A DNA stretch of 47,498 nucleotides, taken from a virus. Its lineage: Duplodnaviria; Heunggongvirae; Uroviricota; Caudoviricetes. How positions within the stretch are numbered: the first letter of the stretch is position 1; each line of letters opens with the position of its first letter. Below are positions 1 through 46,826 of the stretch, one piece after another. The translations under genes were made by a program, and so were the position numbers. The notes under the pieces were generated by a model, which ran no database searches, had not been told where the DNA came from, and was given only the letters and a program-made list of their open reading frames with translations. Location of the stretch: IMG/VR virus record IMGVR_UViG_2660238269_000006. One strand, written 5' to 3'.

Positions 1-1019
1 CTACTTGCTGACCACAAGTGGCAAATCCAGTGTCGGCGTGATTTTTGTTTTACGATCATAAATCAACACCTGATTTTCTGTTTTATGTCCACTGAAAATC
101 TGTTTGTCGCGACTGCTTCCTTCGTAATCTGATATTCCTTTGGCTTTTATGTCATGGAAATTGCACCCAAACGGGACGCCGGATTTTTTCTCGGCTGCGT
201 GTTTAGCCTGGTTCCACCAGTTGTTTAGCGTTTTAGCTATGACCTTCCCGCCCTTGGTTGTGTTGATCACATATTCACATGTGCCTGAAGATACATTTCT
301 GGCTAACTGGATCGCGGTTCGTAATCGTGGAGACCATTCCTTGATTTGTTTGGTGCCGGTCTTGTTTTGCTCAATGTAGATTCCTTTATCCATAATATCC
401 TGCCATTTCAGCTCGAGCACATCACCGAGTCTTGCCGCACAAAGATAGGATATCTCCATTGCAATGCGTAACTGTGGTATTGCTTCCGCATATATCGCCG
501 CATACTGTTCATCTGTGATGTAAACAGTGCGGGCTTTAAGCGTAAATTTCCTGACTCCTTTGCATGGGTTATTCTTCACATATCCACGCTCATATCCCCA
601 CCCGTATACACGACTGAGACTTGCCAGTTCATGGTTTGCCTGGGTCTTGCTCTCAATCCCCCGTTTATCCATGAAAATTCTTACCTGCTCAATTTTTACA
701 TTATCAGCCAGTACTTTTCCGAAGACTGCCAGTAACGCCCTCTGATGTTGCCGATAATCTTTTTGGGTTCTGGGGCCAGTTCTGTAAATGCGGGGGAATC
801 CATAAACATGTGCCATAATTTAGCGACGGTCATTATGTTGTGGCGTTTTGCTTTTTCCAGTTCATAATTCTGCCAGACTTTAGCTATGCTGGTTTCCCGC
901 ACTCTTCCTAGCCCTATAGTTTTTGTGCTTCCTTCGGGTTTCCATACGTAACTGTAACCATTCGATCTAACACGTGGCGGTAGTGCATTATCTTTTTTGT
1001 TTTTTCTTGGTCTTCCCAT
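1..1019 (-). pseudogene. int: Tyrosine integrase (lambda Int family), split into two ORFs by an apparent 1-nt frameshift
   Basis: ORFs 696..1019 (N-terminal, MGRPRKNKK...) and 1..816 (C-terminal catalytic part) are in different frames; the join implied by the translations lies at the GGGG run at 772-775. Stop codon at 1-3. Confidence 0.75.
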
Positions 1020-7942: not shown

Positions 7943-8028
7943 TATTTATGCCAGCCCCCTGCTGATTCTGTTGATTGGGGAATCACAGAATATCACCAGA
8001 GGATGGTTCGTCACAAGATGAGGCAATT

Positions 8029-9493: not shown

Positions 9494-9526
9494 ATCTGAG
9501 AAGCGATTTTGTAGGAGGAAATTTTA

Positions 9527-12735: not shown

Positions 12736-12745
12736 ATCGCCGAAA

Positions 12746-12779
12746 AAAGATCCCGCCACAAACATGAGCCGGGATCTTT
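12746..12779. terminator. Hairpin between convergent genes (bidirectional terminator candidate)
   Basis: aaagatcccg (12746-12755) pairs with cgggatcttt (12770-12779); A-run before and T-rich after. Confidence 0.4.
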
Positions 12780-12857
12780 GATTTATATAGCCTACGAATC
12801 CGCAGTAAGAGAGGGGCAGACGGTTTATTCTAACACCGGAATGATGTGGGTAAAAGT

Positions 12858-13157
12858 TTATAAGAAATCGGTTTCATAACTTTGCCCACCATGATAGATA
12901 CCGACAATAAAGACTTTTCTGCCATCAACGGCAAAAGCAATAATCGTTCTGTGGCGGAAATGAGTTACCCGCATCCCCTGGCGAATATCATCGCGTTTAT
13001 TGCCCCGATGCGGGAATGTAGAAAACCCATCAAGATAATCAAGAAGCGCATTGGCATAATTGTCAGCAATGATGTTCCCTGCTTTCTCCGTTATATATCT
13101 GTGCAGGTTGATTATTTGTTGTTCGGCCTCAGGAGTAATGATGACTTCATATGTCAT
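12858..13157 (-). CDS. parE: ParE/RelE-family type II toxin
   Basis: 99-aa protein MTYEVIITPEAEQQIINLHRYI...RVTHFRHRTIIAFAVDGRKVFIVGIYHGGQSYETDF, typical ParE; immediately downstream of an RHH antitoxin gene. Confidence 0.65.
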   Translation of the reverse strand: MTYEVIITPEAEQQIINLHRYITEKAGNIIADNYANALLDYLDGFSTFPHRGNKRDDIRQGMRVTHFRHRTIIAFAVDGRKVFIVGIYHGGQSYETDFL

Positions 13158-13162
13158 GCAGA

Positions 13163-13420
13163 TTACTTCCCGGATCGAATCGCGACGCGAACCTGTGAAA
13201 TGGAGCGTCCGTTGTTTGGGTTTTCGCGGATAGAATCAAGAGAGGGGGCGGCTGAATGCGTTAACCACGCTTCGATTGCTTTATCGCGCTCATTCAGTGC
13301 GCGAAGCCCTTCACGAATGACCTCGCTTTCTGAAGCATAGGCGCCGGAAGCCACACGGGCGCGCACCATGTCAGCCATCTCGTTAGTTAATGTAATGCTG
13401 AATTGTTGGGTTGTACGCAT
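13163..13420 (-). CDS. parD: ParD/CopG-type ribbon-helix-helix antitoxin
   Basis: MRTTQQFSITLTNEMADMVRARVASGAYASESEVIREGLRALNERDKAIEAWL; ATG at 13418-13420 with RBS GAGG; 5-nt gap to parE. Confidence 0.6.
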   Translation of the reverse strand: MRTTQQFSITLTNEMADMVRARVASGAYASESEVIREGLRALNERDKAIEAWLTHSAAPSLDSIRENPNNGRSISQVRVAIRSGK

Positions 13421-13555
13421 GGTAAACCTCACGGAGTAGGATAGAACACTATTCGATGATAGCACGCTGCCTGTTGACGACAACAGAAATCAGAGACAAT
13501 ATTGCCGCACGCCAGCCTGAACAACTGGCACCTGCTGCGCCAGCAGAGACAACCG

Positions 13556-13834
13556 ATGGCGCAAGATACCAAATTACACAATTCGGATAACTCCACCGCC
13601 CCTGCCAGCAGGCACGGGCGGCGTTCTCATGCATTCAAATCTGACTGGTTCCAGCATGACCCATGCACTGAAGAACAGGCCGAATGGCTGATCCAGTGCT
13701 ACCGCAGACGTGGTTACGAGTTTCAGAAAGATCTCAGCTTCGATCGTCGTCACTGGATAATCTCCGTCAGGCTCCCTTATTCCGAACGCCCACCGCGTCC
13801 GTCCCGCACATTCCAGCAGCGCATCTGGAGGTAA
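13556..13834 (+). CDS. Hypothetical protein (92 aa)
   Basis: ORF divergent from parDE and upstream of the DUF968 gene; no recognisable family. Position resembles the small gene between ydfU and relBE in Qin. Confidence 0.3.
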   Translation: MAQDTKLHNSDNSTAPASRHGRRSHAFKSDWFQHDPCTEEQAEWLIQCYRRRGYEFQKDLSFDRRHWIISVRLPYSERPPRPSRTFQQRIWR

Positions 13835-13835
13835 C

Positions 13836-14885
13836 GTGCGGGTATTACTTCGACCTGTTCTGGTACCGGAACTCGGGATGGTGCTCCTTAAGCCGGGCCG
13901 TGAATCAATGTCAGCATTCCATAACGGCAGAATATTGGTGGAACCGGAACCGAAAAACATGCGCGGTCTGCCGTCCGGAGTCGTTCCTGCCGTTCGCCAG
14001 CCGCTGGCAGAGGATAAAACATTACTGCCATTTTTCAGCGATGAGCGGGTTATTCGTGCAGCAGGTGGTGCAGGTGCACTGTCTGACTGGTTATTACGTC
14101 ACGTGAAATCCTGCCAGTGGCCACACGGCGATTATCATCACAGCGAAACCGTCATTCACCGTTACGGTACCGGCGCGATGGTGTTGTGCTGGCACTGTGA
14201 CAACCAGCTGCGCGACCAGACATCAGAATCACTCGATCAACTTGCTCAGCAGAATCTGGCAGTCTGGATGATTGATGTTATACGTCACGCAATAAGCGGT
14301 ACGCAGGAGAGGGAGTTATCGCTGGCCGAATTATCCTGGTGGGCGGCCTGCAATCAGGTGGTGGATGCACTACCTGAGGCAGTAGCGCGTCGTTCGCTGG
14401 GATTACCGGTGGAAAAAATCCGCTCCGTATACCGTGAGAGTGACATCGTACCGGGAGAACAGACAGCCATCAGCATACTGAAGCAGCGCACAAAAAATAT
14501 TGCGCTGCCACTTCACGTCCACCAGCAACAAAATCCACCACAGAAAAAAACGGTTGTCAGTATCGCCGTTGATCCGGAGTCTCCTGAATCGTTTATGAAG
14601 CGGCCTAAACATCGCCGTTGGGTTAATGAGAAATACACGCGCTGGGTAAAGACACAGCCGTGTGCGTGTTGTGGTAAGCCAGCTGACGATCCGCATCACC
14701 TGATTGGTCATGGTCAGGGGGGAATGGGAACAAAAGCCCACGATATTTTCACGCTACCGCTGTGTCGGGAGCATCATAACGAGCTTCATGCGGATCCGCT
14801 GGCGTTCGAAGAAAAGCATGGTTCTCAGGTTGATTTAATTTTTCGTTTTCTTGATCACGCCTTTGCAACCGGTGTGCTTGGGTAA
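13836..14885 (+). CDS. DUF968 / YdfU-like protein with C-terminal HNH-like Cys/His motif
   Basis: 349-aa ORF from a GTG start; C-terminal CACCGKPADDPHHLIGHGQGGMGTKAHDIFTLPLCREHHNELH. Confidence 0.55.
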   Translation: MRVLLRPVLVPELGMVLLKPGRESMSAFHNGRILVEPEPKNMRGLPSGVVPAVRQPLAEDKTLLPFFSDERVIRAAGGAGALSDWLLRHVKSCQWPHGDYHHSETVIHRYGTGAMVLCWHCDNQLRDQTSESLDQLAQQNLAVWMIDVIRHAISGTQERELSLAELSWWAACNQVVDALPEAVARRSLGLPVEKIRSVYRESDIVPGEQTAISILKQRTKNIALPLHVHQQQNPPQKKTVVSIAVDPESPESFMKRPKHRRWVNEKYTRWVKTQPCACCGKPADDPHHLIGHGQGGMGTKAHDIFTLPLCREHHNELHADPLAFEEKHGSQVDLIFRFLDHAFATGVLG

Positions 14886-14894
14886 AAGGGGGTA

Positions 14895-15230
14895 TTGATG
14901 TGTATAGAGTTTGTTTTGCCTTACCCGCCGACGGTGAATACTTACTGGCGACGTCGTGGCAGCACATATTTTGTATCAAAAGCCGGGGAGCGTTATCGCC
15001 GGGCAGTGGCGTTTATTGTTCGCCAGCAGCGACTGAAATTAAGCCTGTCCGGACGGCTGGCAATAAAAATTATTGCAGAGCCACCGGATAAGCGTCGTCG
15101 TGACCTGGACAACATTCTGAAAGCACCGCTGGATGCGCTGACGCATGCGGGACTGCTTATCGACGATGAACAGTTTGATGAAATCAATATTGTACGTGGT
15201 CAGCCAGTATCTGGTGGACGTCTGGGGTGA
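14895..15230 (+). CDS. rusA: RusA Holliday-junction resolvase
   Basis: LPYPPTVNTYWRRRG...PDKRRRDLDNILKAPLDALTHAGLLIDDEQ matches the RusA signature including the RRRDLDN acidic motif. Confidence 0.75.
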   Translation: MMCIEFVLPYPPTVNTYWRRRGSTYFVSKAGERYRRAVAFIVRQQRLKLSLSGRLAIKIIAEPPDKRRRDLDNILKAPLDALTHAGLLIDDEQFDEINIVRGQPVSGGRLG

Positions 15231-15267
15231 AGATTTACCCCATAATGCTTGAAGGGCAGGTCAAAAA

Positions 15268-16089
15268 ATGAAACTGGAAGATTTACCGAAATACTACTCC
15301 CCAAAATCCCCCGGCCTGACTGATGCATCGGCCTCAACGTCAAAAGATGCGCTGAGTATCACTGATGTGATGGCCGCGCAGGGCATGACACAGAATCGGG
15401 CTGAGATGGGGTTTTCTGCGTTCCTTGGGAAAATGGGCATTAGTATGAATGACAGAGAGCGGGCAACAGAATTGCTGACAGAATATGCACTCAGTCGGTG
15501 TGATCGCGTGGCGGCGTTAAGAAAACTCCCGGCAGAAATAAAACCGGCAGTGATGCGTATTATGGCTTCGTATGCGTTTGAAGATTATGCCCGTAGCGCG
15601 GCGAGCAAAAAACAGTGCCCCTGCTGTCACGGAAAAAAATTTATTGAAAGCGAGGTTTTTACAAACAAGATCCAGTATCCGGATGGTAAGCCGCCAGTGT
15701 GGGCAAAGTGCACAAAAGGCGTGTATCCGTCTTACTGGGAGGAATGGAAAAAAGTCAGGGAGGTGGTAAAAGTTGCCTGTCCGGAGTGTGGCGGAAAGGG
15801 GGAGGTTTCCACCGCCTGTAAAGATTGTCGTGGGCGCGGTGTTGCCATTCATCGTGAAGAGTCGGAAAAACAGGGTGTGCCGGTTTTCAGAAACTGCCAG
15901 CGTTGTGGTGGGCGTGGCTATGAAAGATTACCTTCAACGGAGGCATTTAATGCCATATGTAATGTAACCGATGCCATATCTCTTGATACATGGAAAAAAA
16001 CAGTTAAACGTTTTTACGATACGCTGGTGGTGCAGTTTGATATTGAAGAAGCATGGGCAGAACAACAACTGAAAAAGGTGACCAGATAG
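15268..16089 (+). CDS. Late-gene antiterminator Q
   Basis: 273-aa protein with zinc-binding CPCCHGKK...CPECGGKG...CKDCRGRG...CQRCGGRG motifs, located just upstream of a promoter/terminator pair and late genes. Confidence 0.65.
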   Translation: MKLEDLPKYYSPKSPGLTDASASTSKDALSITDVMAAQGMTQNRAEMGFSAFLGKMGISMNDRERATELLTEYALSRCDRVAALRKLPAEIKPAVMRIMASYAFEDYARSAASKKQCPCCHGKKFIESEVFTNKIQYPDGKPPVWAKCTKGVYPSYWEEWKKVREVVKVACPECGGKGEVSTACKDCRGRGVAIHREESEKQGVPVFRNCQRCGGRGYERLPSTEAFNAICNVTDAISLDTWKKTVKRFYDTLVVQFDIEEAWAEQQLKKVTR

Positions 16090-16168
16090 CTTTGTTGATT
16101 TTTCCCGAATCTGTGGTAAATTTGCCCTAACGATGGGCGTTTTATGCCTGACGTTAGAAGATTTTTAC

Positions 16169-16192
16169 ACCCGTCGCCAGGCGGGTTTTTTT
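16169..16192 (+). terminator. tR'-like intrinsic terminator downstream of Q
   Basis: Stem acccg (16169-16173) / cgggt (16182-16186) followed by a run of seven T; candidate -35/-10 (ttgatt ... tggtaaatt) lies upstream around 16096-16125. Confidence 0.5.
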
Positions 16193-16314
16193 ATGACTGA
16201 AATCACGCCAGTACAGTAAACGCGCTGGTGGCGGTGAATACCGGTCTTTCAGCTTGCTGGCTTTTTTGACAAGAGTTATTGGTGTGTCACGTTAACCGGA
16301 AAAGGGAAAAAGAC

Positions 16315-16512
16315 ATGCTAAAACAGCAGGATATGACCGAAACCGCCAGAGTGGTGTTTAATGAGTTAAGCGTCACCGAACCGGCGACAGTCGGGGAGAT
16401 TGCGCAGAATACTTACCTTTCACGCGAACGCTGTCAGTTAATACTGACCCAGCTGGTTATGGCGGGTCTGGCAGACTATCAGTTTGGTTGTTACAGACGC
16501 CTTCAGTCCTGA
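16315..16512 (+). CDS. Hypothetical small protein (65 aa), first late-region ORF
   Basis: ATG at 16315 with purine-rich RBS (aaagggaaaaagac); stop lies inside a strong terminator hairpin. Confidence 0.4.
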   Translation: MLKQQDMTETARVVFNELSVTEPATVGEIAQNTYLSRERCQLILTQLVMAGLADYQFGCYRRLQS

Positions 16513-16524
16513 AGGCTTTTTTAT
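16499..16524 (+). terminator. Intrinsic terminator
   Basis: gccttcag (16499-16506) / ctgaaggc (16509-16516), followed by TTTTTTATTT. Confidence 0.55.
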
Positions 16525-16662
16525 TTGTGGTAAATGGGCGGCTGGTGGGTGTTAGGGGCACTCACCAGCCATCTGCTCATGCGTCTGGATCACAAGCAAA
16601 CCTCAGGCCCACTGCTTTGCGCAAAAGCAGAATGAGCCTATCAGAGACAGGCTTAATGATCC

Positions 16663-17721
16663 ATGCTTAATACTGTAAAAATATCCAGTTGTGAGTTAAT
16701 CAACGCCGACTGCCTGGAATTTATCCGGTCGTTACCCGAAAATTCTGTTGACCTGATAGTCACGGACCCGCCGTACTTTAAAGTGAAGCCTGAGGGCTGG
16801 GATAACCAGTGGAAGGGCGACGATGATTACCTGAAGTGGCTGGACCAGTGTCTTGCGCAGTTCTGGCGGGTGCTGAAACCTGCCGGAAGTCTTTACCTGT
16901 TCTGTGGCCATCGCCTGGCATCTGATATCGAAATCATGATGCGTGAACGCTTCAGTGTGCTGAACCATATTATCTGGGCAAAGCCGTCCGGACGCTGGAA
17001 CGGGTGCAACAAGGAAAGCCTGAGGGCGTATTTCCCCGCCACAGAGCGCATTCTGTTCGCGGAACATTATCAGGGGCCGTATCGTCCGAAAGATGCCGGG
17101 TATGAGGCGAAGGGCAGGGCACTGAAACAGCATGTGATGGCACCGCTGATTGCTTACTTTCGTGATGCGCGCGCTGCCCTGGGGATAACGGCAAAACAGA
17201 TTGTGGATGCCACAGGAAAGAAAAACATGGTGTCGCACTGGTTCAGTGCCAGTCAGTGGCAGCTACCGAACGAAAGCGATTATCTGAAATTACAGGCGCT
17301 GTTTGCCCGGGTGGCAGAAGAGAAGCATCAGCGGGGTGAACTGGAAAAGCCCCACCACCAGCTGCTGGAGACGTATACTTCACTGAACCGGCAGTATGCG
17401 GAACTGCAGAGTGAATATAAGCATCTGCGGCGGTATTTTGGCGTGACGGCGCAGGTGCCGTACACGGATGTGTGGACGCATAAACCGGTGCAGTACTATC
17501 CCGGGAAACATCCGTGCGAAAAACCGGCAGAAATGCTGCAGCAGATAATCAGCGCGAGCAGTCGTCCGGGGGACCTGGTTGCAGATTTTTTCATGGGGTC
17601 GGGTTCGACAGTCAAAGCCGCGATGGCGCTGGGGCGTCGTGCAACTGGCGTTGAGCTGGAGACTGAACGTTTTGAGCAGACGGTCAGGGAAGTTCAGGAT
17701 TTAGCCAGTCAGAACGGATGA
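16663..17721 (+). CDS. Orphan DNA methyltransferase (N6-adenine/N4-cytosine class, DPPY motif)
   Basis: Motif IV DLIVTDPPYF near the N-terminus and motif I LVADFFMGSGSTVKAA near the C-terminus; no adjacent restriction endonuclease gene. Confidence 0.7.
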   Translation: MLNTVKISSCELINADCLEFIRSLPENSVDLIVTDPPYFKVKPEGWDNQWKGDDDYLKWLDQCLAQFWRVLKPAGSLYLFCGHRLASDIEIMMRERFSVLNHIIWAKPSGRWNGCNKESLRAYFPATERILFAEHYQGPYRPKDAGYEAKGRALKQHVMAPLIAYFRDARAALGITAKQIVDATGKKNMVSHWFSASQWQLPNESDYLKLQALFARVAEEKHQRGELEKPHHQLLETYTSLNRQYAELQSEYKHLRRYFGVTAQVPYTDVWTHKPVQYYPGKHPCEKPAEMLQQIISASSRPGDLVADFFMGSGSTVKAAMALGRRATGVELETERFEQTVREVQDLASQNG

Positions 17722-17761: not shown

Positions 17762-17837
17762 GGCCCTTTAGCTCAGTGGTGAGAGCGAGCGACTCATAAT
17801 CGCCAGGTCGCTGGTTCAAATCCAGCAAGGGCCACCA
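17762..17837 (+). tRNA. ileZ: tRNA with anticodon CAU, Ile2(LAU)-like
   Basis: 76-nt cloverleaf: acceptor ggccctt/aagggcc, anticodon loop cuCAUaa, T-loop ttcaaat, encoded CCA. Closely resembles E. coli tRNA-Ile2 as recalled; gene name follows the Stx-phage tRNA cluster. Confidence 0.7.
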
Positions 17838-17846
17838 TATCACATA

Positions 17847-17923
17847 CCGCCATTAGCTCATCGGGACAGAGCGTCAGCCTTCGAAGCTGGTTGCGCGGGG
17901 TTCGAGTCCTCGATGGCGGTCCA
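17847..17923 (+). tRNA. argN: tRNA-Arg (anticodon UCG)
   Basis: 77-nt cloverleaf: acceptor ccgccat/atggcgg, anticodon stem tcagc/gctgg, loop cuUCGaa, T-loop ttcgagt, encoded CCA. Symbol assigned by position. Confidence 0.6.
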
Positions 17924-17936
17924 TTATCGGTATTCA

Positions 17937-18013
17937 GCGTTGTTAGCTCAGCCGGACAGAGCAATTGCCTTCTAAGCAATCGGTCACTGGTTCGAATCCA
18001 GTACAACGCGCCA
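17937..18013 (+). tRNA. argO: tRNA-Arg (anticodon UCU)
   Basis: 77-nt cloverleaf: acceptor gcgttgt/acaacgc, anticodon stem attgc/gcaat, loop cuUCUaa, T-loop ttcgaat, encoded CCA. Symbol assigned by position. Confidence 0.6.
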
Positions 18014-18050: not shown

Positions 18051-18102
18051 GTATCTGCGTTACACCATTAACTAATAAATCGAGTGCTTATCAGGAGGCT
18101 AT

Positions 18103-18327
18103 GTGAAAAAACTGATGGTGACGATTGGTCCGTTCGAAACAGAAGTTAGTTTTCGTGTTGTTCAGGGGGAGAGTGTACTTGTTGAAGATGTATTTCATGG
18201 AAAATCAACAGGTCCTTATGTAAAAGAATATCTTATCGACGCCACGGATGAAAATATTGAGGTGGTGTACGATTCCGTCAATCACCCTGATTTGATCATT
18301 AAGGCAAAATTGAAGCCACTTTATTGA
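18103..18327 (+). CDS. Hypothetical small protein (74 aa), cargo gene in the stx slot
   Basis: GTG start 4 nt after AGGAGG (alternative ATG at 18115); AT-rich relative to flanks; no recognisable family. Confidence 0.45.
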   Translation: MKKLMVTIGPFETEVSFRVVQGESVLVEDVFHGKSTGPYVKEYLIDATDENIEVVYDSVNHPDLIIKAKLKPLY

Positions 18328-34803: not shown

Positions 34804-35235
34804 ATGTTTCTGAAAACAGAACAATTTGAATATAACGGCGTGTCCGTCACCCTTTCCGAACTGTCTGCGCTGCAGCGTATTGAGCATCTTGCCCTCCTGA
34901 AACGGCGGGCAGAAGAGGCTGAAGCCAGCGGCAACCTGCAGGTGAGCGTGGAAGACCTTGTCAGAACCGGGGCGTTTCTGGTGGCGATGTCCCTGTGGCA
35001 TAACCATCCACAGAAAACGCAGTCACCGTCAATGAATGAGGCCGTGATGAAGATAGAGCAGGAAGTGCTCACCACCTGGCCTGCCGATGCCATTGCCCGG
35101 GCGGAAGAAGTGGTGTTGTGCCTGTCCGGGATGATCGAAGCTGTTCGTCCGGATACTGATATCACCGAAGTGGCGAAAAATAACGTGCTGACTGATGATG
35201 ATTTTTCTGCGGGAAAGTCTTCGACGGCGAGCTGA
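34804..35235 (+). CDS. Tail assembly chaperone gpG-like
   Basis: 143 aa; contains the slippery heptamer G GGA AAG near its 3' end. Confidence 0.65.
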   Translation: MFLKTEQFEYNGVSVTLSELSALQRIEHLALLKRRAEEAEASGNLQVSVEDLVRTGAFLVAMSLWHNHPQKTQSPSMNEAVMKIEQEVLTTWPADAIARAEEVVLCLSGMIEAVRPDTDITEVAKNNVLTDDDFSAGKSSTAS

Positions 35236-35618
35236 ATTTTGCCCTCAGACTGGCGCGTGAGATGGGGAGACCCGACTGGCGCGCCATGCTTGCCGGGATG
35301 ACATCCACCGAATATGCCGACTGGCACCGTTTTTACCGCACGCATTATTTTCAGGATACCCAACTGGATATGCATTTTTCCGGGCTGACGTACGCCGTAC
35401 TCAGCCTGTTTTTTTGCGATCCGTATATGCATCCGGCGGATTTCAGTCTGCTGGCTCCCCGGCGAGAGGAAGAGCAGACGGAGATGCCGGATGAGGAAGA
35501 CATGCTGATGCAGAAAGCGGCAGGACTTGCCGGAGGCGTCCGGTTCGGCGAGGAGGGAGGGGCGATATTTCACCTTCTGCGGATGTGGTGGATGTCAGCG
35601 AGGATGATGTCGCATTAA
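34804..35618 (+). CDS. gpGT-like fusion produced by programmed -1 ribosomal frameshift
   Basis: Slippery sequence GGGAAAG at 35211-35217 (the same heptamer as lambda G/GT); the -1 frame stays open to 35618. Confidence 0.55.
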
Positions 35619-35654
35619 TGATGGCTTCAGCGGGGATTTCCGGAGGTGTGAGAT

Positions 35655-38219
35655 ATGTCCCAGCCGGTTGGTGATCTTGTTATTGACCTGAGTCTGGATG
35701 CGGTTCGTTTCGATGAGCAGATGACCCGCGTAAGGCGTCATTTTTCAGGACTGGAGACTGACGCCAGAAAGACCGCCAGTGCTGTTGAGCAGGGGCTGAG
35801 CCGCCAGGCGCTGGCTGCACAAAAAGCCGGGATATCAGTCGGGCAGTATAAAGCCGCCATGCGTATGCTACCCATGCAGTTCACCGACGTGGCCACGCAG
35901 CTTGCCGGTGGTCAGAATCCCTTCCTTATCATGCTGCAGCAGGGCGGTCAGGTGAAGGACTCCTTCGGCGGGATGATCCCCATGTTCCGGGGGCTTGCTG
36001 GTGCGATCAGCCTGCCAATGGCCGGTGTCACCTCGCTGGCGGTGGCGACCGGTGCGCTGGCGTACGCCTGGTACCAGGGGGATTCCACGCTTTCAGCGTT
36101 TAATAAAACCCTGGTTCTTTCCGGTAATCAGTCAGGACTGACGGCAGAGCGCATGCTTACGCTCTCCAGAGCCGGACAGGCAGCAGGGCTGACGTTTAAC
36201 CAGGCGAGTGAGTCACTGGCAGCCCTGGTGAATGCCGGTGTGCGTGGTGGTGAACAGTTTGATTCCATCAACCAGAGTGTCGCGCGTTTTGCGTCTGCCT
36301 CCGGTGTGGAAGTGGACAGGGTTGCAGAGGCTTTCGGAAAGCTGACCACCGACCCGACGTCGGGACTGATGGCGATGGCGCGCCAGTTCCGTAACGTGAC
36401 GGCAGAGCAGGTTGCGTATGTTGCACAACTGCAGCGTTCCGGAGACGAGGCCGGGGCATTGCAGGCGGCGAACGAGGCTGCCACGAAAGGCTTTGATGAC
36501 CAGACCCGCCGCCTGAAAGAGAACATGGGGACGCTGGAAACCTGGGCGGATAAAACAGGGAAGGCGTTCAAATCGATGTGGGATGCCATTCTGGATATTG
36601 GTCGTCCTGATACCGCGCAGGAGATGCTGATTAAGGCAGAGACTGCGTTTAAGAAAGCAGACGACATCTGGAATCTCCGCAAGGATGATTATTTTGTTAA
36701 CGATGAAGCGCGGGCGCGTTACTGGGATGATCGTGAAAAGGCCCGTCTTGCGCTTGAAGCCGCCCGAAAGAAGGCTGAGCAGCAGACTCAACAGGACAAA
36801 AATGCGCAGCAGCAGAGCGATACCGAAGCGTCACGGCTGAAATATACCGAAGAGGCGCAGAAGGCTTACGAACGCCTGCAGACACCGCTGGAGAAATATA
36901 CCGCCCGTCAGGCAGAACTGAACAAGGCTCTGAGAGACGGGAAAATCCTGCAGGCGGATTACAACACGCTGATGGCGTCGGCGAAAAAGGATTATGAATC
37001 AACGCAGAAAAAACCGAAGTCGTCAGGTGTCAGAGTGTCAGCCGGGGAGCGTCAGGAAGACCGGGCGCATGCAGCCCTGCTGGCGCTTGAAACTGAGCTC
37101 CGGACGCTGGAGAAGCACAGCGGTGCGAATGAGAAAATCAGCCAGCAGCGCCGTGATTTATGGAAAGCGGAAAGTCAGTATGCGGTCCTGAAAGAGGCTG
37201 CCACGAAACGACAGTTATCCGGGCAGGAAAAATCCCTGCTGGCCCATGAGAAAGAGACACTGGAGTACAAACGCCAGCTGGCTGAGCTGGGCGACAAGGT
37301 TGAATACCAGAAACGGCTGAATGAGCTGGCACAGCAGGCGGTGCGGTTTGAAGAGCAGCAGAGCGCGAAGCAGGCCGCCATCAGCGCAAAAGCCCGTGGT
37401 CTCACTGACCGTCAGGCGCAGCGGGAGTCTGAAGCGCAGCGTCTTCGTGACGTGTACGGCGATAATCCGCAGGCGCTGGCACAGGTCACCGGGGCACTGA
37501 AACAGACATGGGCGGATGAAGACATGCTGCGCGGTGACTGGCTGGCCGGGCTGAAGTCCGGCTGGGGCGAGTGGGCGGAAAGTGCGACGGACAGTTTTTC
37601 GCAGGTTAAAAGTGCTGCCACGCAGACCTTTGATGGTATTGCACAGAATATGGCGGCGATGCTGACCGGCAGCGAACAGAACTGGCGGGGATTCACCCGT
37701 TCGGTGCTGTCCATGATGACAGAAATCCTGCTTAAACAGGCCATGGTGGGCATTGTCGGGCGTATCGGCAGCGCCATCGGGGGAGCCATTGGTGGTGCTG
37801 GCGCATCCGCTTCCACGGGGACAGCCATTCAGGCTGCGGCAGCGAACTTTCATTTTGCGACCGGCGGATTTACGGGCACGGGCGGCAAATATGAGCCTGC
37901 GGGGATAGTTCACCGCGGGGAGTTTGTCTTCACGAAGGAGGCAACCAGCCGGATAGGTGTGGGGAATCTTTACCGCCTGATGCGCGGCTATGCGGAAGGG
38001 GGGTATGTGGGTGGTGCCGGAAGTCCGGCGCAGATGCGGCGGGCGGAAGGTATTAATTTTAATCAGAACAATCACGTGGTGATTCAGAACGACGGTATCA
38101 ACGGACAGGCGGGGCCGCAGTTGCTGAAGGCGGTGTATGACATGGCCCGCAAGGGGGCGCGGGATGAGATTCAGGCACAGATGCGTGACGGTGGCGTATT
38201 TTCCGGAGGCGGGCGATGA
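35655..38219 (+). CDS. Tail tape measure protein (gpH-like)
   Basis: 854 aa, coiled-coil-rich, Gly-rich C-terminus; position and size match lambda gpH. Confidence 0.8.
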   Translation: MSQPVGDLVIDLSLDAVRFDEQMTRVRRHFSGLETDARKTASAVEQGLSRQALAAQKAGISVGQYKAAMRMLPMQFTDVATQLAGGQNPFLIMLQQGGQVKDSFGGMIPMFRGLAGAISLPMAGVTSLAVATGALAYAWYQGDSTLSAFNKTLVLSGNQSGLTAERMLTLSRAGQAAGLTFNQASESLAALVNAGVRGGEQFDSINQSVARFASASGVEVDRVAEAFGKLTTDPTSGLMAMARQFRNVTAEQVAYVAQLQRSGDEAGALQAANEAATKGFDDQTRRLKENMGTLETWADKTGKAFKSMWDAILDIGRPDTAQEMLIKAETAFKKADDIWNLRKDDYFVNDEARARYWDDREKARLALEAARKKAEQQTQQDKNAQQQSDTEASRLKYTEEAQKAYERLQTPLEKYTARQAELNKALRDGKILQADYNTLMASAKKDYESTQKKPKSSGVRVSAGERQEDRAHAALLALETELRTLEKHSGANEKISQQRRDLWKAESQYAVLKEAATKRQLSGQEKSLLAHEKETLEYKRQLAELGDKVEYQKRLNELAQQAVRFEEQQSAKQAAISAKARGLTDRQAQRESEAQRLRDVYGDNPQALAQVTGALKQTWADEDMLRGDWLAGLKSGWGEWAESATDSFSQVKSAATQTFDGIAQNMAAMLTGSEQNWRGFTRSVLSMMTEILLKQAMVGIVGRIGSAIGGAIGGAGASASTGTAIQAAAANFHFATGGFTGTGGKYEPAGIVHRGEFVFTKEATSRIGVGNLYRLMRGYAEGGYVGGAGSPAQMRRAEGINFNQNNHVVIQNDGINGQAGPQLLKAVYDMARKGARDEIQAQMRDGGVFSGGGR

Positions 38220-38545
38220 AAACCTTTCGCTGGAAAGTGAAGCCGGATATGGAGGTGAACTCGCAGCCGTCGGTGCGTGAAGTGCGTTTTGGTGACGGGT
38301 ATTCGCAGCGAACGGCGGCAGGGCTGAATGCAGACCTGAAGACGTACAGGGTGATGCTTTCCGTGACCCGGGAGGAGGCCCGGCATCTGGAAGCGTTCCT
38401 GGCAGAGCACGGGGGCTGGAAGGCATTTTTGTGGAAGCCACCCTATGCATACCGGCAGATAAAGGTGACCTGTGCCGGGTGGTCTGCGCGGGTCGGGATG
38501 TTGCGCGTTGAGTTCAGCGCGGAGTTTAAGCAGGTGGTGAACTGA
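38216..38545 (+). CDS. Minor tail protein gpM-like
   Basis: 109 aa in the M position; ATGA overlap with H. Confidence 0.65.
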   Translation: MKTFRWKVKPDMEVNSQPSVREVRFGDGYSQRTAAGLNADLKTYRVMLSVTREEARHLEAFLAEHGGWKAFLWKPPYAYRQIKVTCAGWSARVGMLRVEFSAEFKQVVN

Positions 38546-39243
38546 TGCAGGATATTCACGAAGAAAGCCTGAACGAGTCGGTTAAATCAGAGCAGTCACC
38601 GCGGGTGGTGCTCTGGGAAATCGACCTGACGGTGCAGGGCGGTGAGCGGTATTTTTTCTGCAATGAGCTGAATGAAAAAGGGGAGCCGGTGACCTGGCAG
38701 GGGCGTGAATATCAGGCGTACCCGATTGAGGGCAGCGGCTTTGAGATGAACGGAAAGGGCAGCAGTGCCCGCCCGTCGCTGACAGTGTCCAATCTTTTCG
38801 GGCTGGTCACCGGGATGGCGGAGGATTTGCAGAGCCTGGTGGGTGCCACGGTGGTCCGTCGCCGGGTGTATGCGCGTTTTCTGGATGCGGTGAATTTTGT
38901 GGCAGGCAATCCTGAGGCCGACCCGGAGCAGGAGCTGACGGACCGGTGGGTGGTGGAGCAGATGTCATCGCTGACGGCCATGACGGCCTCGTTTGTGCTG
39001 GCGACACCGACGGAGACGGACGGTGCGCTGTTTCCCGGTCGCATCATGCTGGCGAACACCTGTATGTGGGATTACCGGGGCGATGAGTGCGGGTATAACG
39101 GTCCGGCAGTGGCGGATGAGTTCGACAACCCCACCACGGATATCCGGAAGGACAGATGCAGTAAATGCATGCGCGGGTGTGAGATGCGCGGCATGGCGGT
39201 CAATTTTGGCGGTTTCCTTTCCATTAATAAACTTTCGCAGTAA
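38545..39243 (+). CDS. Minor tail protein gpL-like
   Basis: 232 aa with a C-terminal Cys cluster (CMWDYRGDECGYNG...CSKCMRGCEMRG). Confidence 0.7.
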   Translation: MQDIHEESLNESVKSEQSPRVVLWEIDLTVQGGERYFFCNELNEKGEPVTWQGREYQAYPIEGSGFEMNGKGSSARPSLTVSNLFGLVTGMAEDLQSLVGATVVRRRVYARFLDAVNFVAGNPEADPEQELTDRWVVEQMSSLTAMTASFVLATPTETDGALFPGRIMLANTCMWDYRGDECGYNGPAVADEFDNPTTDIRKDRCSKCMRGCEMRGMAVNFGGFLSINKLSQ

Positions 39244-39253
39244 ATCCCGTTTT

Positions 39254-39997
39254 ATGACACAGACTGAATCAGCGATTCTGGCGCATGCCCGGCGGTGTGC
39301 GCCAGCGGAGTCGTGCGGCTTCGTGATAAGCACACCGGAGGGTGAACGGTACCAGCCCTGCGTGAATATCTCCGCAGAGCCGGAGGCGTATTTTCGTATT
39401 ACACCGGAAGACTGGCTGCAGGCACAGATGCAGGGGGAGATTGTGGCGCTGGTCCACAGTCATCCCGGTGGTCTGCCCTGGCTGAGCGAGGCGGACCGGA
39501 GGCTGCAGATAAAGAGTGCCCTGCCCTGGTGGCTGGTCTGCCGGGGTGAAATTCACCGGTTCCGCTGTGTGCCGCACCTGACCGGACGGCGCTTTGAACA
39601 CGGTGTGACGGACTGTTACACCCTGTTCCGGGATGCTTACCATCTGGCGGGGATAACGCTGCCGGATTTTGTGCGTGAGGATGACTGGTGGCGCAACGGT
39701 CAGAACCTGTACCTGGACAACCTGGCGGAAAACGGCTTTTACCGGGTGTCTCCGTCCCGTGCACAGGCAGGCGATATTCTGCTGTGCTGCTTTGGCGCAT
39801 CGGTGCCGAATCATGCCGCCATTTACTGTGGCAACGGTGAACTGCTTCACCATATACCTGAACAACTGAGTAAACGGGAGAGGTATTCAGAGAAATGGCA
39901 ACGACGAACGCATTCTGTCTGGCGTCACCGCCACTGGTCCGCATCTGCCTTCACGGGGATTTACAACGATTTGGTCGCCGCATCAGCCTGTATGTGA
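39254..39997 (+). CDS. Tail tip protein gpK-like (JAB/MPN plus NlpC/P60 domains)
   Basis: HARRCAPAESCGFV...ALVHSHPGG (MPN-like) and VTDCYTLFRDAYHLAGITLPDF (NlpC/P60-like); start ATG at 39254. Confidence 0.7.
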   Translation: MTQTESAILAHARRCAPAESCGFVISTPEGERYQPCVNISAEPEAYFRITPEDWLQAQMQGEIVALVHSHPGGLPWLSEADRRLQIKSALPWWLVCRGEIHRFRCVPHLTGRRFEHGVTDCYTLFRDAYHLAGITLPDFVREDDWWRNGQNLYLDNLAENGFYRVSPSRAQAGDILLCCFGASVPNHAAIYCGNGELLHHIPEQLSKRERYSEKWQRRTHSVWRHRHWSASAFTGIYNDLVAASACM

Positions 39998-40574
39998 ACA
40001 CGGCAGCGGAGGCCATCCGTGCCCTGTCGCTGCAGGTGCCGGGATTCCGCTGTCAGATGAACGAAGGCTGGTATCAGATACGTATTGCCGGTGAGGATAC
40101 CGCGCCGGAGGCGGTGTATGCCCGTCTTCATGAGCCACTGAGCGGGAGGGCCGTGATTCATATTGTACCGCGGCTGGCCGGAGCCGGGGGAAATGGTGTT
40201 TTTCAGGTGGTGCTGGGGCTGCAGCCATCGTGGGCTCTTTCTTCACCGGCGGCGCAACGATGGCGTTGTGGGGCGCAGCCCTGAGTGCCGGAGGGCTGAC
40301 TGCCACCACGATGCTGTTCTCACTGGGGGTCAGCATGATACTGGGTGGCGTGGCACAGATGCTGGCCCCGAAGGCAAAGACGCCGGAGTACAAAAGTACG
40401 GATAACGGTAAACAGAACACGTATTTTTCGTCACTGGACAACATGATTGCCCAGGGTAACCCGATGCCGGTGCCTTACGGTGAAATGCTGGTTGGTTCAC
40501 GACGGATATCCCAGGACATCAGCACCCGTGATGAGGGCGGTGACGGGAAAGTGGTGGTTATCGGGCGGGGATAA
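39895..40574 (+). pseudogene. Tail assembly protein gpI-like, interrupted by an apparent 1-nt frameshift
   Basis: ORFs 39895..40284 and 40230..40574 together cover a lambda gpI-like protein; the frame changes at the GGGG run at 40215-40218. Confidence 0.65.
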
Positions 40575-40943
40575 AAATAAAAAAATCCCGCAGAGTTAGC
40601 GGAGCTGCGGGAAATAACGATGAAGATTAACGTTATGGAGTTATTTTTTTGGGCAGAAAAACAGTAACGCAGCGTCATTATTGCGGCTACAGGCAATTGC
40701 CGGAAGTGTGAAGAATTTCAGAAATTTTCTGTGGCGGGGCTGAAATAAAAAACGCTCCCGCAATACACCTGGATATTAACGGGAGGAACGAATAGTCACC
40801 TTAAGGAGTTGCGATTAATTGCTTTTATTGACCGCAGGTAATCTACCCATCCGGCAAGGTTTCCTCCACGGGAATTTGCCGGAAATGTGAAGAATTTCAG
40901 AAATTTTATTCTGTCATGACACAGGCACCCTCCGGGGTGCCTG
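40575..40943. repeat. Tandemly duplicated non-coding element in the I-J intergenic region
   Basis: Two units, each with an identical 22-mer tgtgaagaatttcagaaatttt (40707-40728 and 40886-40907) containing the palindrome AATTTC-a-GAAATT, plus a hairpin with a flanking A/T run (40587-40611 and 40755-40785). Confidence 0.5.
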
Positions 40944-40994
40944 TTGTTTTCTGGCATAAACAGATTCAGACATCAGACAGGAGAGGGGGACAGA

Positions 40995-43900
40995 GTGGGT
41001 AAAGGGGGCGGCAAGGGGCACACACCGCGTGAGGCGAAGGACAATCTCAAATCCACGCAGATGATGAGCGTGATTGATGCCATTGGTGAGGGACCGGTGG
41101 AAGGTCCGGTGAAGGGACTGCAGAGTATTCTGGTGAACAAAACCCCGCTGACGGACACGGACGGTAATCCCGTGATACACGGTGTGACCGCCGTCTGGCG
41201 TGCCGGGGAGCAGGAGCAGACACCGCCGGAAGGCTTTGAGTCCTCCGGGGCGGAAACCGCACTGGGCGTGGAGGTGACGAAGGCAAAGCCGGTGACGCGC
41301 ACCATCACGTCAGCGAACATTGACCGTCTGCGGGTCACCTTCGGGGTGCAGTCACTGGTGGAGACCACCTCAAAGGGTGACCGTAATCCCTCTTCTGTCC
41401 GGCTGCTGATTCAGCTTGAGCGTAACGGTAACTGGGTGACGGAGAAGGATATCACCATTAACGGCAAGACCACCTCGCAGTACCTGACGTCGGTGATTCT
41501 GAATAATCTCCCTGAGCGCCCCTTTAACATCCGGATGGTCAGGGAGACGGCGGACAGCACCACGGACCAGCTGCAGAACAGAACGCTGTGGTCGTCATAC
41601 ACCGAAATCATCGATGTGAAACAGTGCTACCCGAACACGGCGATTGTGGGGCTGCAGGTGGATGCGGAGCAGTTTGGTGGCCAGCAGCTGACGGTGAACT
41701 ACCATATCCGTGGTCGCATCATTCAGGTGCCGTCAAACTATGACCCGGAAAAACGCACCTACAGCGGTATCTGGGACGGGAGTCTGAAACCGGCATACAG
41801 CAATAACCCGGCCTGGTGCCTGTGGGACATGCTGACCCACCCGCGCTACGGGATGGGAAAACGCCTGGGGGCGGCGGATGTGGACAAGTGGGCTCTGTAT
41901 GCCATCGGGCAGTACTGCGACCAGACGGTCCCGGATGGTTTCGGGGGAACAGAGCCGCGGATGACCTTTAATGCGTACCTGTCACAGCAGCGTAAGGTCT
42001 GGGATGTCCTGGGGGATTTCTGCTCGGCGATGCGCTGTATGCCGGTATGGAACGGCCAGACGCTGACGTTCGTTCAGGACCGTCCGTCGGATGTGGTGTG
42101 GCCGTACACCAACAGCGATGTGGTGGTGGATGATAACGGCGTGGGGTTCCGCTACAGCTTCAGTGCCCTGAAGGACCGGCACACGGCGGTGGAGGTGAAT
42201 TACACCGACCCGCAGAACGGCTGGCAGACTTCCACGGAACTGGTGGAAGACCCGGACGCCATCCTGCGCTACGGGCGCAATCTGCTGAAGATGGATGCGT
42301 TTGGCTGTACCAGCCGCGGTCAGGCCCACCGTGCCGGACTGTGGGTGATAAAGACAGAACTGCTGGAAACGCAGACGGTGGATTTCACGCTCGGGTCACA
42401 GGGGCTGCGGCACACGCCCGGTGACATTATTGAAATCTGTGATAACGACTACGCCGGGACCCTGACCGGCGGACGCATCCTGTCCATCGATGCTGCCAGC
42501 CGCACACTGACGCTGGACCGTGAGGTGACACTGCCTGAGACAGGTACATCGACGGTGAACCTGATTAACGGCAGCGGTAAGCCGGTGCGCGTGGACATCA
42601 CTGCACACCCCGCCCCGGACCGGATACAGGTCAGCGCCCTGCCGGATGGCGTGGAGACATACGGTGTGTGGGGACTCTCCCTGCCGTCACTGCGTCGTCG
42701 CCTGTTCCGCTGTGTTTCCATCCGGGAAAACACGGACGGCACCTTTGCCATCACGGCAGTGCAGCACGTACCGGAAAAAGAAGCCATTGTGGATAACGGG
42801 GCCCGCTTTGAGCCGCTCTCCGGCTCACTGAACAGCGTCATCCCGCCGGCAGTGCAGCACCTCACGGTGGAGGTGAGTGCCTCAGACGGCCAGTATCTGG
42901 CGCTGGCGAAATGGGACACGCCGCGGGTGGTGAAGGGCGTGCGCTTCAGTCTGCGCCTGACCAGTGGCAGTGGTGAGAACAGCCGCCTGGTGACCAGCGC
43001 CCTCACGGCGGACACGGAGTACCGTTTCAGTGGCCTGCCGCCCGGGGAATACACCCTGACGGTCAGGGCGATAAACAGCTACGGCCAGCAGGGCGAACCT
43101 GCCACCACTACATTCCGGATTAATGCGCCTGCAGCACCGGCCAGCATTGAGCTGACGCCGGGGTATTATCAGATAACAGCAGTACCGGTGCTGGCGGTGT
43201 ATGACCCGACGGTACAGTATGAATTCTGGTTCTCAGAAAAACGCATCACGGACATGGCACAGGTGGAAACCTCTGCCCGTTATCTGGGGACAGGCAGCCA
43301 GTGGAGTGTCTCCGGCCCGCACATTAAGCCGGGGAAGGATTTCTGGTTTTATGTGCGCAGCGTCAACCTGGTGGGGAAATCTGCGTTTGTGGAAGCCAGT
43401 GGCCGGGCGAGCAATGATGCGGAAGGGTATCTGGACTTTTTCAGAGGAGAAATCGGGAAGACACATCTGGCACAGGGGATGTGGGAGCTGATTGATAACA
43501 GCCAGCTTGACGATGAGATGGCGGAGATGAAGACCACCATCACCGAAACCCGCAATGAAATCACGCAGACGGTCAGTAAAACTCTGGAAGACCAGAGTGC
43601 CACCATACAGCAGATACAGCGGGTGCAGACAGACACAAATAACGACCTGGCTGCGCTGTACATGCTGAAGGTGCAGAAAACGAAAAACGGCATTCCGTAT
43701 GTTGCCGGTATAGGTGCGGGGATTGAGGATGCTGATGGCCAGCCCCTGAGCAATATTCTGCTGCAGGCGGACCGTATCGCGATGATTAACCCGGAGAACG
43801 GCAACACCACGCCGCTGTTTGTGGCGCAGGGGAATCAGCTGTTCATGAACGATGTGTTCCTGAAACGACTGTTTGCGGTGAGTATTACCTCATCAGGTGA

Positions 43901-44543
43901 GCCTCCGACGTTTTCCCTGACGCCGGACGGGAAACTGACAGCCCGTAATGCGGATATCAGCGGACATATCAGTGCGAACTCGGGCACGCTGAATAACGTG
44001 ACCATTGCAGAAAACTGCGTTGTTAAAGGAACCATTAGCGCAGACAGAATCATCGGTGATATCGTCAAGGGCTATTCCTTCGAACCTCGTGATGGCACGC
44101 TCCATATTACGAACCACAAGTATGGAGAGGGTTATGTCATCTTTAAGGCGGAGGTATCTCTTGCTGATGATGTTTCGTTTGATCGCAAGCTGATACTCCT
44201 TCCCTTCTTTTTCTATTCAGGAACACTGACGATAGCGATTAACGGAAGAGTTGTCATTAAGGCAGAACCGAGAATTGCTGATACGGGTTTTTCAGGTCGT
44301 TTTGACAGAAATGGCAATGCTGTTAACACGTACACCAACCTCGGGGACACCGTTTCAGGAGTATGGGATGTGGTGGCAGGAGGGGGAGATACACGGATTA
44401 CAGTGACAATGAGAGTTGAAGGTGGTCCTGGCAATATGGGGGATGTGGAAGGGAGAAAGAGAGAGCTGGTGCGATGGAGATATGACGCCTTTACTCTCAT
44501 GGTGGCGAAATCGACAGATTCCGGTTTTACCCGGAGATCGTGA
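40995..44543 (+). CDS. Central tail fibre / host-specificity protein (gpJ-like)
   Basis: N-terminal [21 protein letters not shown] and long collinear similarity to lambda gpJ; GTG start at 40995 with RBS AGGAGAGGGGG; the C-terminal roughly 150 aa diverge from lambda. Confidence 0.8.
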
Positions 44544-44744
44544 CAGGCAGCCGGAATACGGATTGCCGGAAGGAGACAAAAACCGTACATTATGCGCGGG
44601 TGCCTTTGGCTGATGGCCGGAGGGAACACCTGAAGGCCGGAAAGACGAAGGCCCCGGACAAACATTCATGTTTAACCCGAGGCCTGACTTTCGATCTTCA
44701 GCAAATTGAAGGTTAGCGCCTCTCCGTAAAAGGAGCAAGCGTTT

Positions 44745-44885
44745 ATGTCGCAAAAACCGTTAAAAACCACCGTGATTTGTATCACGGTAGTGCTCATTAT
44801 CTGGATCACCCACAGTTCACTGTGCGAGTTCCGGTTCCGGATAGCGGGCGCGGAGATTGCGGCGTTCTTACAGTGTAAGCAGTAA
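44745..44885 (+). CDS. Hok/Gef-family type I toxin (46 aa)
   Basis: MSQKPLKTTVICITVVLIIWITHSSLCEFRFRIAGAEIAAFLQCKQ: transmembrane helix followed by the SLCE-R-R...E-AAF motif of Hok family peptides; RBS AAAGGAG; GC-rich hairpin at 44894-44916 immediately downstream. Confidence 0.6.
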   Translation: MSQKPLKTTVICITVVLIIWITHSSLCEFRFRIAGAEIAAFLQCKQ

Positions 44886-44980
44886 GAAACCGTGGCGGGG
44901 GAGAATATCCCCCGCCGACCGGTTGCTGAGGGTGGTCAGCCGGACGGCACCGTTTTAACACCAACAAACCACAAATATTA

Positions 44981-45014
44981 CCGCAGGCCGGGAAACCGGT
45001 CCTGCGGTTTTTTT
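44981..45014 (+). terminator. Intrinsic terminator between hok and stf
   Basis: ccgcagg / cctgcgg stem with inner ccgg-gaaa-ccgg, followed by TTTTTTT. Confidence 0.55.
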
Positions 45015-45027
45015 ATGGGGGAAATCC

Positions 45028-46763
45028 ATGACAGTCAGAATATCGGGTGTGCTGAAGGATGGTACGGGAAAAGCGGTACCGGGATGCACGATAGAGCTGA
45101 AAGCGCGACGCACAACGGAGACGGTGATTGTCACCACGGTGGCGTATGGTCAGCCGGGGGAAACCGGCAGTTACAGTATGGATGTTGAGCCGGGGTTGTA
45201 CCGGGTGACGCTGAACACGGAAGGGTACGCGCCGTCATATGTGGGTGACATTCTGGTTAAGGCGGACTCTGCACCGGGAACGCTGAATAAATTTCTGATG
45301 GACCTGGAGGACGCACAGTATTACCCGAAAGCCCTTGCAGAGCTGGAAGCGGTGGCCGCGGAAATCCTGAAACGTGCGGAAGCGTCAGCGGCGAGTGCAG
45401 AGGAAGCGAAGAAACGGGCAGAGAATGCGAGGGGACCGAAGGGGGATAAGGGAGACACGGGGCCACAGGGTATTCCCGGGCCAAAAGGCGATACCGGCGA
45501 GCGGGGCCAAAGGGTGAGCGTGGTGAGACAGGACCACAGGGGCTTCAGGGTGTGAAAGGTGAACGGGGAGAGAAGGGCGAAAAAGGCGAGCCGGGAGGAC
45601 CGGATGCGACGACGGCACAGAAGGGAATTGTGCAGTTAAGCAGCACAACGGACAGTGATGATGAAACGAAGGCAGCCACCCCGAAAGCGGTGAAAGCGGC
45701 AATGGACAAAGCGGACGGATGCCTGGAGAAAGCGAAAAACGGTGACGATATCCCGGATAAGGTGAAGTTTCTGAACACCGTGGGAGCAGCCAGAGTATAC
45801 GGGCGGGACATTCATACGGGGGCCGGTGAATGGACCACGAGTGAGTTTGTGGCCTGGCTGAAAGAAAAGGGGGCATTTGACCAGCCTTACTGGATGATGA
45901 AGGCATCACTGCCTGCGGAATTTAATAAGGTCATCACGGATGTCGGACCGGGAAAACTCAATCTGGGAGGCTGCGCCATTGAGGTGATGGGGACGTATAA
46001 CGCAGCCATAGTCCGGGTCACCATCGGCGAATACGGTGGCGATGGTTTTCTGAACGGCACGGTCTGTACCTGTACAGTTTACGGAGACACACAACGTTTT
46101 CACTGGCGGGTGGATTACAGCACAAAAAACAAACCGGATACGGTCAGCCAGCGGGATGCCAGCACGACGCAGAAAGGTGTGGTGCAGTTAAGCAGTGATA
46201 CTGACAGTAATGACGAAACAAAGGCAGCCACGCCGAAGGCCGTGAAGGCGGCAATGGATGTGGCAAATGAAGCGAAAACAAAGGCAGAAGAGGCTGCAGC
46301 AGGAGGTGGTGTTCCCGGTCCGAAAGGAGAGAAAGGGGACACGGGGCCAGCAGGTCCTGCAGGACCGCAGGGACCTGAAGGGGATACGGGAGCTGCAGGC
46401 CCGGCAGGCGCACAGGGGCCAAAAGGTGACAAAGGCGATCCGGGAGAAGCAGGTCCAGCAGGTCCGGCAGGTCCCAAAGGTGAGCGCGGTGAACCGGGAC
46501 CGATGGGGCCTCCGGGGAAAGATGGCGCAACTTCGCTGGTTAGTGGGCTGCGTATCGGAGGGAAGAAAGAAGTCGCACACCATGAGGTGATTACTTTCCC
46601 GTCACTGGATGGAGCACAACCAACGATTCCCGGCATGAATATAGTCCCTGATGGTGCTGTAATTCTGAATATCCGGTCACAGGCTTACAAAATTACTGCT
46701 GTAACTTATGGCTTTCTTCAGGTTCACAATGGAAGCCAGTGGGTAACGATTAAAACGGAATAA
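45028..46763 (+). pseudogene. Side tail fibre (Stf-like, collagen-like Gly-X-Y repeats), interrupted by an apparent 1-nt frameshift
   Basis: ORFs 45028..45555 and 45552..46763; N-terminus MTVRISGVLKDGTGKAVPGCTIELKARR parallels lambda Stf; the frame changes inside Gly-X-Y repeats at the G/C run around 45503-45508. A KGIVQLSS-type motif occurs twice downstream. Confidence 0.7.
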
Positions 46764-46826
46764 CGTGACTCACACTGGTTGTTGCGTTCCATTATGCCCA
46801 ACCGGGCATTAAATACGGAGAATAAT

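Follow-up and report, generated by a model that had tools for sequence, protein, structure and literature searches.

Loss of the side tail fibre (Stf) through a frameshift is known and tolerated in phage lambda (PMC12617516). In lambda PaPa, stf, which is located between J and tfa, is split by a single base into an N-terminal and a C-terminal ORF (orf-401 and orf-314; Hendrix and Duda, 1992, in PMC12617516). Experiments have verified this mutation, which is not accompanied by similar lesions, and the phage is viable and still able to use J. Intact genes of the same kind are found in the lambdoid prophages of STEC, which encode Stf proteins such as WP_106913339.1 and P0093 (EFI9788124.1) in the order hok, stf, DUF4376 gene.

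A different kind of split gene has been described for long-read assemblies. Outside AT-rich genomes, PacBio consensus errors are mostly single-base deletions of G or C in homopolymers; in the two GC-rich genomes examined the homopolymers hit were 4-6 nt long, the errors concern a small fraction of the runs, in E. coli insertions of A/T were found as well as deletions of G/C, and predicted proteins were truncated by such deletions (ARAMIS; PMC8574707). Homopolymer errors are also the commonest residual error in long-read bacterial assemblies, and after short-read polishing they remain mainly in repeats (Polypolish; PMC8812927).

The window analysed here is the whole stretch of 47,498 nt recorded as IMGVR_UViG_2660238269_000006, and it carries a lambdoid E. 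coli prophage with a split stf. As in lambda PaPa, the gene has J before it and tfa behind it and is divided by a single base into N- and C-terminal ORFs. Unlike the lambda PaPa mutation, however, the lesion of the window has counterparts of the same kind in int, rusA, T and I, and the sequence shows no divergence beyond these, a pattern that speaks for an artefact. The fibre protein of the window is of the collagen-repeat type and, beyond the N-terminal domain, is only distantly related to lambda Stf. It shares the hok, stf, DUF4376 gene order with the STEC lambdoid records, which differ from it by having a single 1737-nt CDS, and once one G is restored its protein is identical to P0093. The lesions also resemble the published long-read errors (PMC8574707; PMC8812927) in being single-base deletions in short G/C runs that affect a minority of the runs, in splitting genes, in their concentration in repeats such as multi-copy prophages, and in the lack of accompanying substitutions; they depart from the published profile in that the window has no C-run deletion and no A/T-run insertion, while it contains just 12 C5 runs in 47.5 kb. 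On the basis of the sequence comparisons presented below, we consider that the stf split is most likely a sequencing or assembly artefact, with a probability of about 0.85.

Anatomy of the split stf gene

The two ORFs that follow the hok/gef gene are two halves of one lambdoid stf (Table 1). The missing base was placed by aligning the window with seven E. coli prophages and phage 1720a-02; among these eight relatives the G run reads GGGGG in seven and GTGGG in phage 1720a-02, while the window has GGGG. The correct frame of the C-terminal 418 residues restarts directly past position 45506, and the ORF2 frame contains the remainder of the first collagen-like block, two Phage_fiber_2 repeats, the second collagen-like block and the C-terminal tip. 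As given, the window holds no single uninterrupted CDS for Stf; addition of one G yields an ORF of 1737 nt (578 aa) in which the first block runs unbroken over 19 triplets. The preliminary description had placed a 1-nt frameshift of Stf inside collagen-like repeats and had proposed that one base added to the G run would restore the Gly-X-Y periodicity and a protein of roughly 580 aa, and all of these structural details are borne out by the ORFs and by the alignment of the relatives.

Residues 1-134 of the restored Stf match the Pfam family phage_tail_N (PF08400; E=2.6e-40; 138 bits, where the cut-off is 26.6), the other Pfam matches being Collagen and two copies of Phage_fiber_2, and the protein matches phrog_366 (tail fiber) with E=1.7e-121. 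Its last ~75 aa form a C-terminal domain. The order J, hok/gef, stf, DUF4376 gene is the one expected for a lambdoid Stf, and it is found likewise in the annotated relatives. The real stf is most likely a single side tail fibre gene of 578 codons with its assembly chaperone gene downstream. The predicted protein would attach to the tail by its N-terminal domain and bind the receptor with its C-terminal tip, and it would contain two segments of collagen-like triple helix and two repeats of the phage-fibre type.

Table 1. Positions of stf, of its neighbours and of the five shortened G runs in the 47,498-nt window.
Feature	Position	Strand	Remarks
int, shortened run	772..775	- (gene); G5->G4 on +	split into ORFs 1..816 and 696..1019; restored 339 aa
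rusA, shortened run	15224..15227	+	G5->G4 near 3' end; restored 124 aa
gpT, shortened run	35559..35562	+	G5->G4 cuts T to 118 aa; restored 137 aa
gpI (tail assembly protein), shortened run	40215..40218	+	G5->G4 gives ORFs 39895..40284 and 40230..40574; restored 226 aa
J	40944..44543		
hok/gef toxin gene	44745..44885		46 aa, PF01848; between J and stf
Whole stf	45028..46763	+	578 aa after restoring one G
stf ORF1	45028..45555	+	175 aa: PF08400 domain, 8 Gly-X-Y triplets, 15 out-of-frame codons, TGA
Collagen-like block 1	45433..45602	+	restored aa 136-192, 19 Gly-X-Y triplets; broken by the frameshift
stf frameshift site	45503..45506	+	GGGG, GGGGG in relatives; one G missing
stf ORF2	45552..46763	+	403 aa, listed from the first GTG; -1 frame relative to ORF1
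Collagen-like block 2	46308..46532	+	restored aa 428-502, 25 triplets
Tail fibre assembly/chaperone-like gene	46827..47498	+	DUF4376 / Caudo_TAP-like, phrog_11571; intact

The same deletion at five places in one prophage

A whole-window megablast against 5,426 complete RefSeq E. coli genomes and the INPHARED phages yielded nothing identical to it, and its best matches there are mosaic sequences of about 97% identity. Closer comparators were found for the two halves of the window, namely JAOWNM010000001.1 for the left half and JWSO02000007.1 (GCA_001188105.2) for the right half. JWSO02000007.1 shows no mismatch to positions 35030-47498 (12,469 nt), and the three gaps of this alignment are all G5->G4 in the window (35559, 40215 and 45503); to positions 17707-39298 it again shows 0 mismatches, with one gap (35559). 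Hence, over the combined 17707-47498 (29.8 kb), the window differs from this contig by a G5->G4 deletion in each of gpT, gpI and stf, and by no substitution. JAOWNM010000001.1 aligns with positions 1-20287 with two gaps, both G5->G4 (772 in int and 15224 in rusA), and with eight mismatches, every one of which lies at or beyond 16671, so that positions 1-16670 are free of substitutions. Taken together, over 1-16670 and 17707-47498 (~46 kb) the comparators differ from the window by five G5->G4 deletions and 0 substitutions. Further assemblies agree with single parts of this pattern: the gap in int is also seen relative to E. coli strain 48, and two more independent assemblies, aligned across stf over 5,857 nt (L052) and 2,100 nt (L055), differ from the window there by the one G alone. 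Thus, without the five deletions, the prophage is base-identical to one recorded with all five genes intact in other public assemblies. It had been noted before that stf is the third homopolymer-associated frameshift of the prophage; others indeed exist, and the contig comparisons bring the total to five rather than three.

All five restored proteins (Int, RusA, T, I and Stf) are exact matches to public proteins. The restored Int is identical to a protein on at least 1000 contigs and the restored RusA to one on about 1000 contigs, while the restored gpI (PNP06084.1) has its match on the JWSO02 contig only, which indicates that the window belongs to the same prophage lineage. The broken products behave differently: stf ORF2, both int fragments, the broken RusA, the T fragment and both gpI fragments have no exact match in a collection of 15 billion proteins or in its called-gene index. 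The stf ORF1 product is the sole broken product with a match, on a Logan contig (L011, discussed below); we discarded this match as a record of the allele of the window, since the contig carries a different allele.

The window contains 46 G5 runs, 8 longer G runs, 12 C5 runs and 215 A/T runs of at least 5 nt. As 46 G5 runs remain, five of about 51 were shortened, while the runs of the three other classes are all unaltered. If all runs of at least 5 nt were at equal risk, the chance that five of five changes fall in G runs would be (59/286)^5, or ~4e-4. Two sets of further candidates were rejected. A G6/G5 difference at 14888-14892, between the DUF968 gene and rusA, was dropped as a sixth window-specific deletion because JAOWNM010000001.1 also has G5; the run is G6 in two other relatives (L010 and L074), and it may be an intergenic length polymorphism or a poorly resolved run. 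Three indels that appear in comparison with more distant relatives (34793, 24929 and 40653) were not counted as errors either, because none of them is present against JWSO02000007.1.

Five identical G-run deletions with zero substitutions over ~46 kb argue for a technical under-call rather than for a fixed pseudogene or a switch, and since four more genes are broken in the same way, without other differences from the intact copies, a sequencing error is the most likely origin. Assembly error, which the preliminary description had named as an outcome that would refute it, is favoured by this same pattern. In stf the consensus would have called a run of five G as four, and the same systematic error would have occurred at four more G5 runs, in int, rusA, gpT and gpI; as to the cause, we infer a homopolymer under-call on a long-read-type platform. 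As is typical of consensus errors, the window differs from the independent assemblies by indels only, and the corrected runs give known proteins. Moreover, STEC genomes contain up to 7 stf-like places each, which makes their lambdoid prophages multi-copy repeats of the kind that retains errors. Natural slippage likewise prefers G:C runs, which counts against a technical origin.

Intact and split stf in related genomes

The restored 578-aa Stf is identical to protein P0093 (accessions EFI9788124.1, EIH9514414.1, EPB5641393.1 and EPB5665349.1), which is present on 8 public contigs. In the six closest complete STEC genomes the stf DNA is 97.5-99.6% identical to that of the window and forms one 1737-nt CDS, annotated as "prophage tail fiber N-terminal domain-containing protein"; the two-ORF arrangement was found in none of the close homologues examined, all of which have the single 1737-nt CDS. 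We ran a 71-nt probe centred on the frameshift site against the 5,426 complete RefSeq E. coli genomes and obtained 279 matching places in 123 of them. The exact G4 71-mer occurs in 0 of these 279 copies, and among the matches listed 30 of 30 copies span 72 nt, that is, they have the extra base. In IMG/VR the in-frame form is present on 36 contigs and the short form on one (L012). The tract was also counted in the fetched loci (n=47), where it reads G5 in 29, GTGGG in 16 and the short GTGG in two (L011 and L012); none of these 47 copies has a G6 allele at the site. The single-CDS homologues, together with the probe and tract counts, thus argue that the split form is not conserved and that the length of the tract is not variable among the relatives.

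Other frameshifted copies of stf were nevertheless recorded. Contig L011 (Logan SRR9619715_232, 471-998) encodes the same 175-aa ORF1 product in DNA that is about 98% identical to the window, the differences inside ORF1 being all synonymous. Its sequence at the frameshift site is CGTGGCC, against CGTGGGCC in intact T-type alleles, so that one base is lost at the same codon; its nearest intact relative among the fetched loci is 98.7-99.0% identical at best. The missing base of L011 is either one more technical error or a true frameshift that arose naturally at this codon, and if SRR9619715 is Illumina data, then real frameshifts do occur at this codon of stf. In either case L011 leaves the reading of the window unchanged, as it is the pattern of five sites that decides. 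L012 (IMGVR_UViG_2534681673_000004, ~4610-5711) has GTGG with a loss at the same codon (CGTGGCC, where intact alleles have CGTGGGCC), and several further frameshifts in stf mark it plainly as poor sequence or wreckage.

Five N-terminal stf fragments (P0002, P0011, P0012, P0022 and P0038) lie on chromosome-sized NCBI contigs and are frameshifted elsewhere in the collagen-like region, for example by A4->A3 in CCAAAAGGC or by G4->G3 where the block begins. These observations suggest that the collagen-like region of stf is a general trap for homopolymer indels. A complementary homopolymer symptom is seen in J of CP027340 (NZ_CP027340.1), which has A6 at the place that corresponds to window position 43683, where the window and the other relatives have A5; this J is annotated as "frameshifted".

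Alternative explanations of the split

A technical under-call has to be weighed first against the possibility that the frameshift is real and fixed, i.e., that the prophage is decaying and that stf is a pseudogene in the manner of lambda PaPa; in such a case the N-terminal fragment could be made, while the part that binds the receptor would lack its link to the tail. The base is indeed absent from the sequence as given, a single-base frameshift leaving two ORFs is the form of a natural stf pseudogene and also the form that stf has in the window, and Stf loss of this kind is tolerated in lambda (PMC12617516). Moreover, the comparison assemblies are perhaps from another isolate than the window, and both the five stf fragments frameshifted elsewhere in the collagen region and the 1-nt loss at the same codon in the other allele of L011 can be taken as examples of such events. 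The pattern as a whole, however, speaks against it. Relative to the nearest intact copies, the changes of the window over ~46 kb are five G5->G4 deletions without a single substitution; nonsense mutations, IS insertions and larger deletions are all absent, and ORF2 and the other broken genes match intact alleles apart from the missing G. In E. coli mutation accumulation, indels make up about 10% of mutations in the wild type and less than about 20-25% in mismatch-repair mutants. With so low a share of indels, the probability of five indels out of five is below ~1e-3, and natural divergence becomes very unlikely. Hence, we regard real, fixed mutations as an unlikely explanation. If the lesion were real nonetheless, stf would be an ordinary pseudogene of the lambda PaPa type in a dead prophage.

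A second way for all five deletions to be real would be a process of the strain that shortens G5 tracts, for example a slippage mutator or reversible ON/OFF switching. Such a process would silence genes of integration, recombination, tail assembly and the side fibre together in a prophage that otherwise equals an active one; we consider it very improbable.

The preliminary description was right about the anatomy of the split and about the presence of several homopolymer frameshifts; its suggestion of phase variation, in which slipped-strand changes of the G tract would turn the expression of the side fibre on and off as at a contingency locus, is not supported. In favour of a switch, the homopolymer change lies within a surface-recognition gene, in a class of genes where switching would be common. 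Mononucleotide contingency tracts, however, are typically at least 7-8 nt long, while the tract of the window has merely 4-5 G. The extra base is present in 30 of the 30 matches listed, 45 further public loci have G5 or GTGGG, and both frameshifted 71-mers are exact in 0 of the 279 matching copies; hence, of the two marks of a contingency locus, a long tract and length variation among close genomes, neither is seen here. Moreover, the GTGGG variant is common, which implies that no selection keeps a slippery tract at this place, and a fibre switch would give no sensible account of the G5->G4 changes in int, rusA, T and I, none of which has a part in host recognition. Given this, slipped-strand phase variation is to be considered highly doubtful.

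The prospect that ORF1 and ORF2 are joined in expression, whether through programmed -1 ribosomal frameshifting or through transcriptional slippage, is close to nil: ORF2 does lie in the -1 frame of ORF1 and the same phage has a real G-T -1 frameshift site (GGGAAAG, 35211-35217), but a search of positions 45400-45555 in the ORF1 frame found no X XXY YYZ heptamer, RNA polymerase slippage requires runs much longer than G4, and every close homologue examined is a single ORF, so that the split form is not conserved, which argues against recoding. The GGGAAAG motif is the canonical lambda G-T slippery heptamer and is located near the end of gpG; the downstream gpT is itself among the genes hit by G5->G4.

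Consequences for the annotation of prophages

If a homopolymer under-call is the origin of the five deletions, the prophage is probably an intact lambdoid prophage, possibly an inducible one. Taken at face value, the same sequence would be scored as a defective prophage, with int, rusA, T, I and stf all listed as "pseudogenes", and its tail fibre would be scored as phase-variable or decayed. Thus, G-rich collagen-repeat fibre genes in multi-copy prophages may be error hot spots that mimic pseudogenisation or phase variation, and since frameshifted stf fragments are present in several chromosome-scale assemblies, surveys of tail-fibre pseudogenes or phase variation in STEC should check the reads. 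In itself the locus indicates nothing new, as the split is either an artefact or, if real, an event of a known kind.

Genomic surroundings of the prophage genes

The window extends exactly from the stop codon of int to the stop codon of tfa. Prophages of the same type in two relatives (L050 and L086) have yccA on the int side and, on the tfa side, a ykgJ-like gene, beyond which lie the hya and appCB operons. Three tRNA genes (17762-18013) lie downstream of a DNA methyltransferase gene, with a CAT anticodon, Arg-TCG and Arg-TCT, respectively; the counterpart of the first is annotated as tRNA-Ile in one relative. Beyond the tRNA genes, some relatives (L056, L076 and L081) carry Shiga-toxin genes (RIP and SLT_beta), while the window has TerB and DUF3927 genes at this place (~18100-19400), which makes its prophage an Stx-less member of the group. 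Closer to stf, a GC-rich hairpin followed by a run of seven T (~44980-45014) resembles a terminator and ends 14 nt upstream of the stf start codon.
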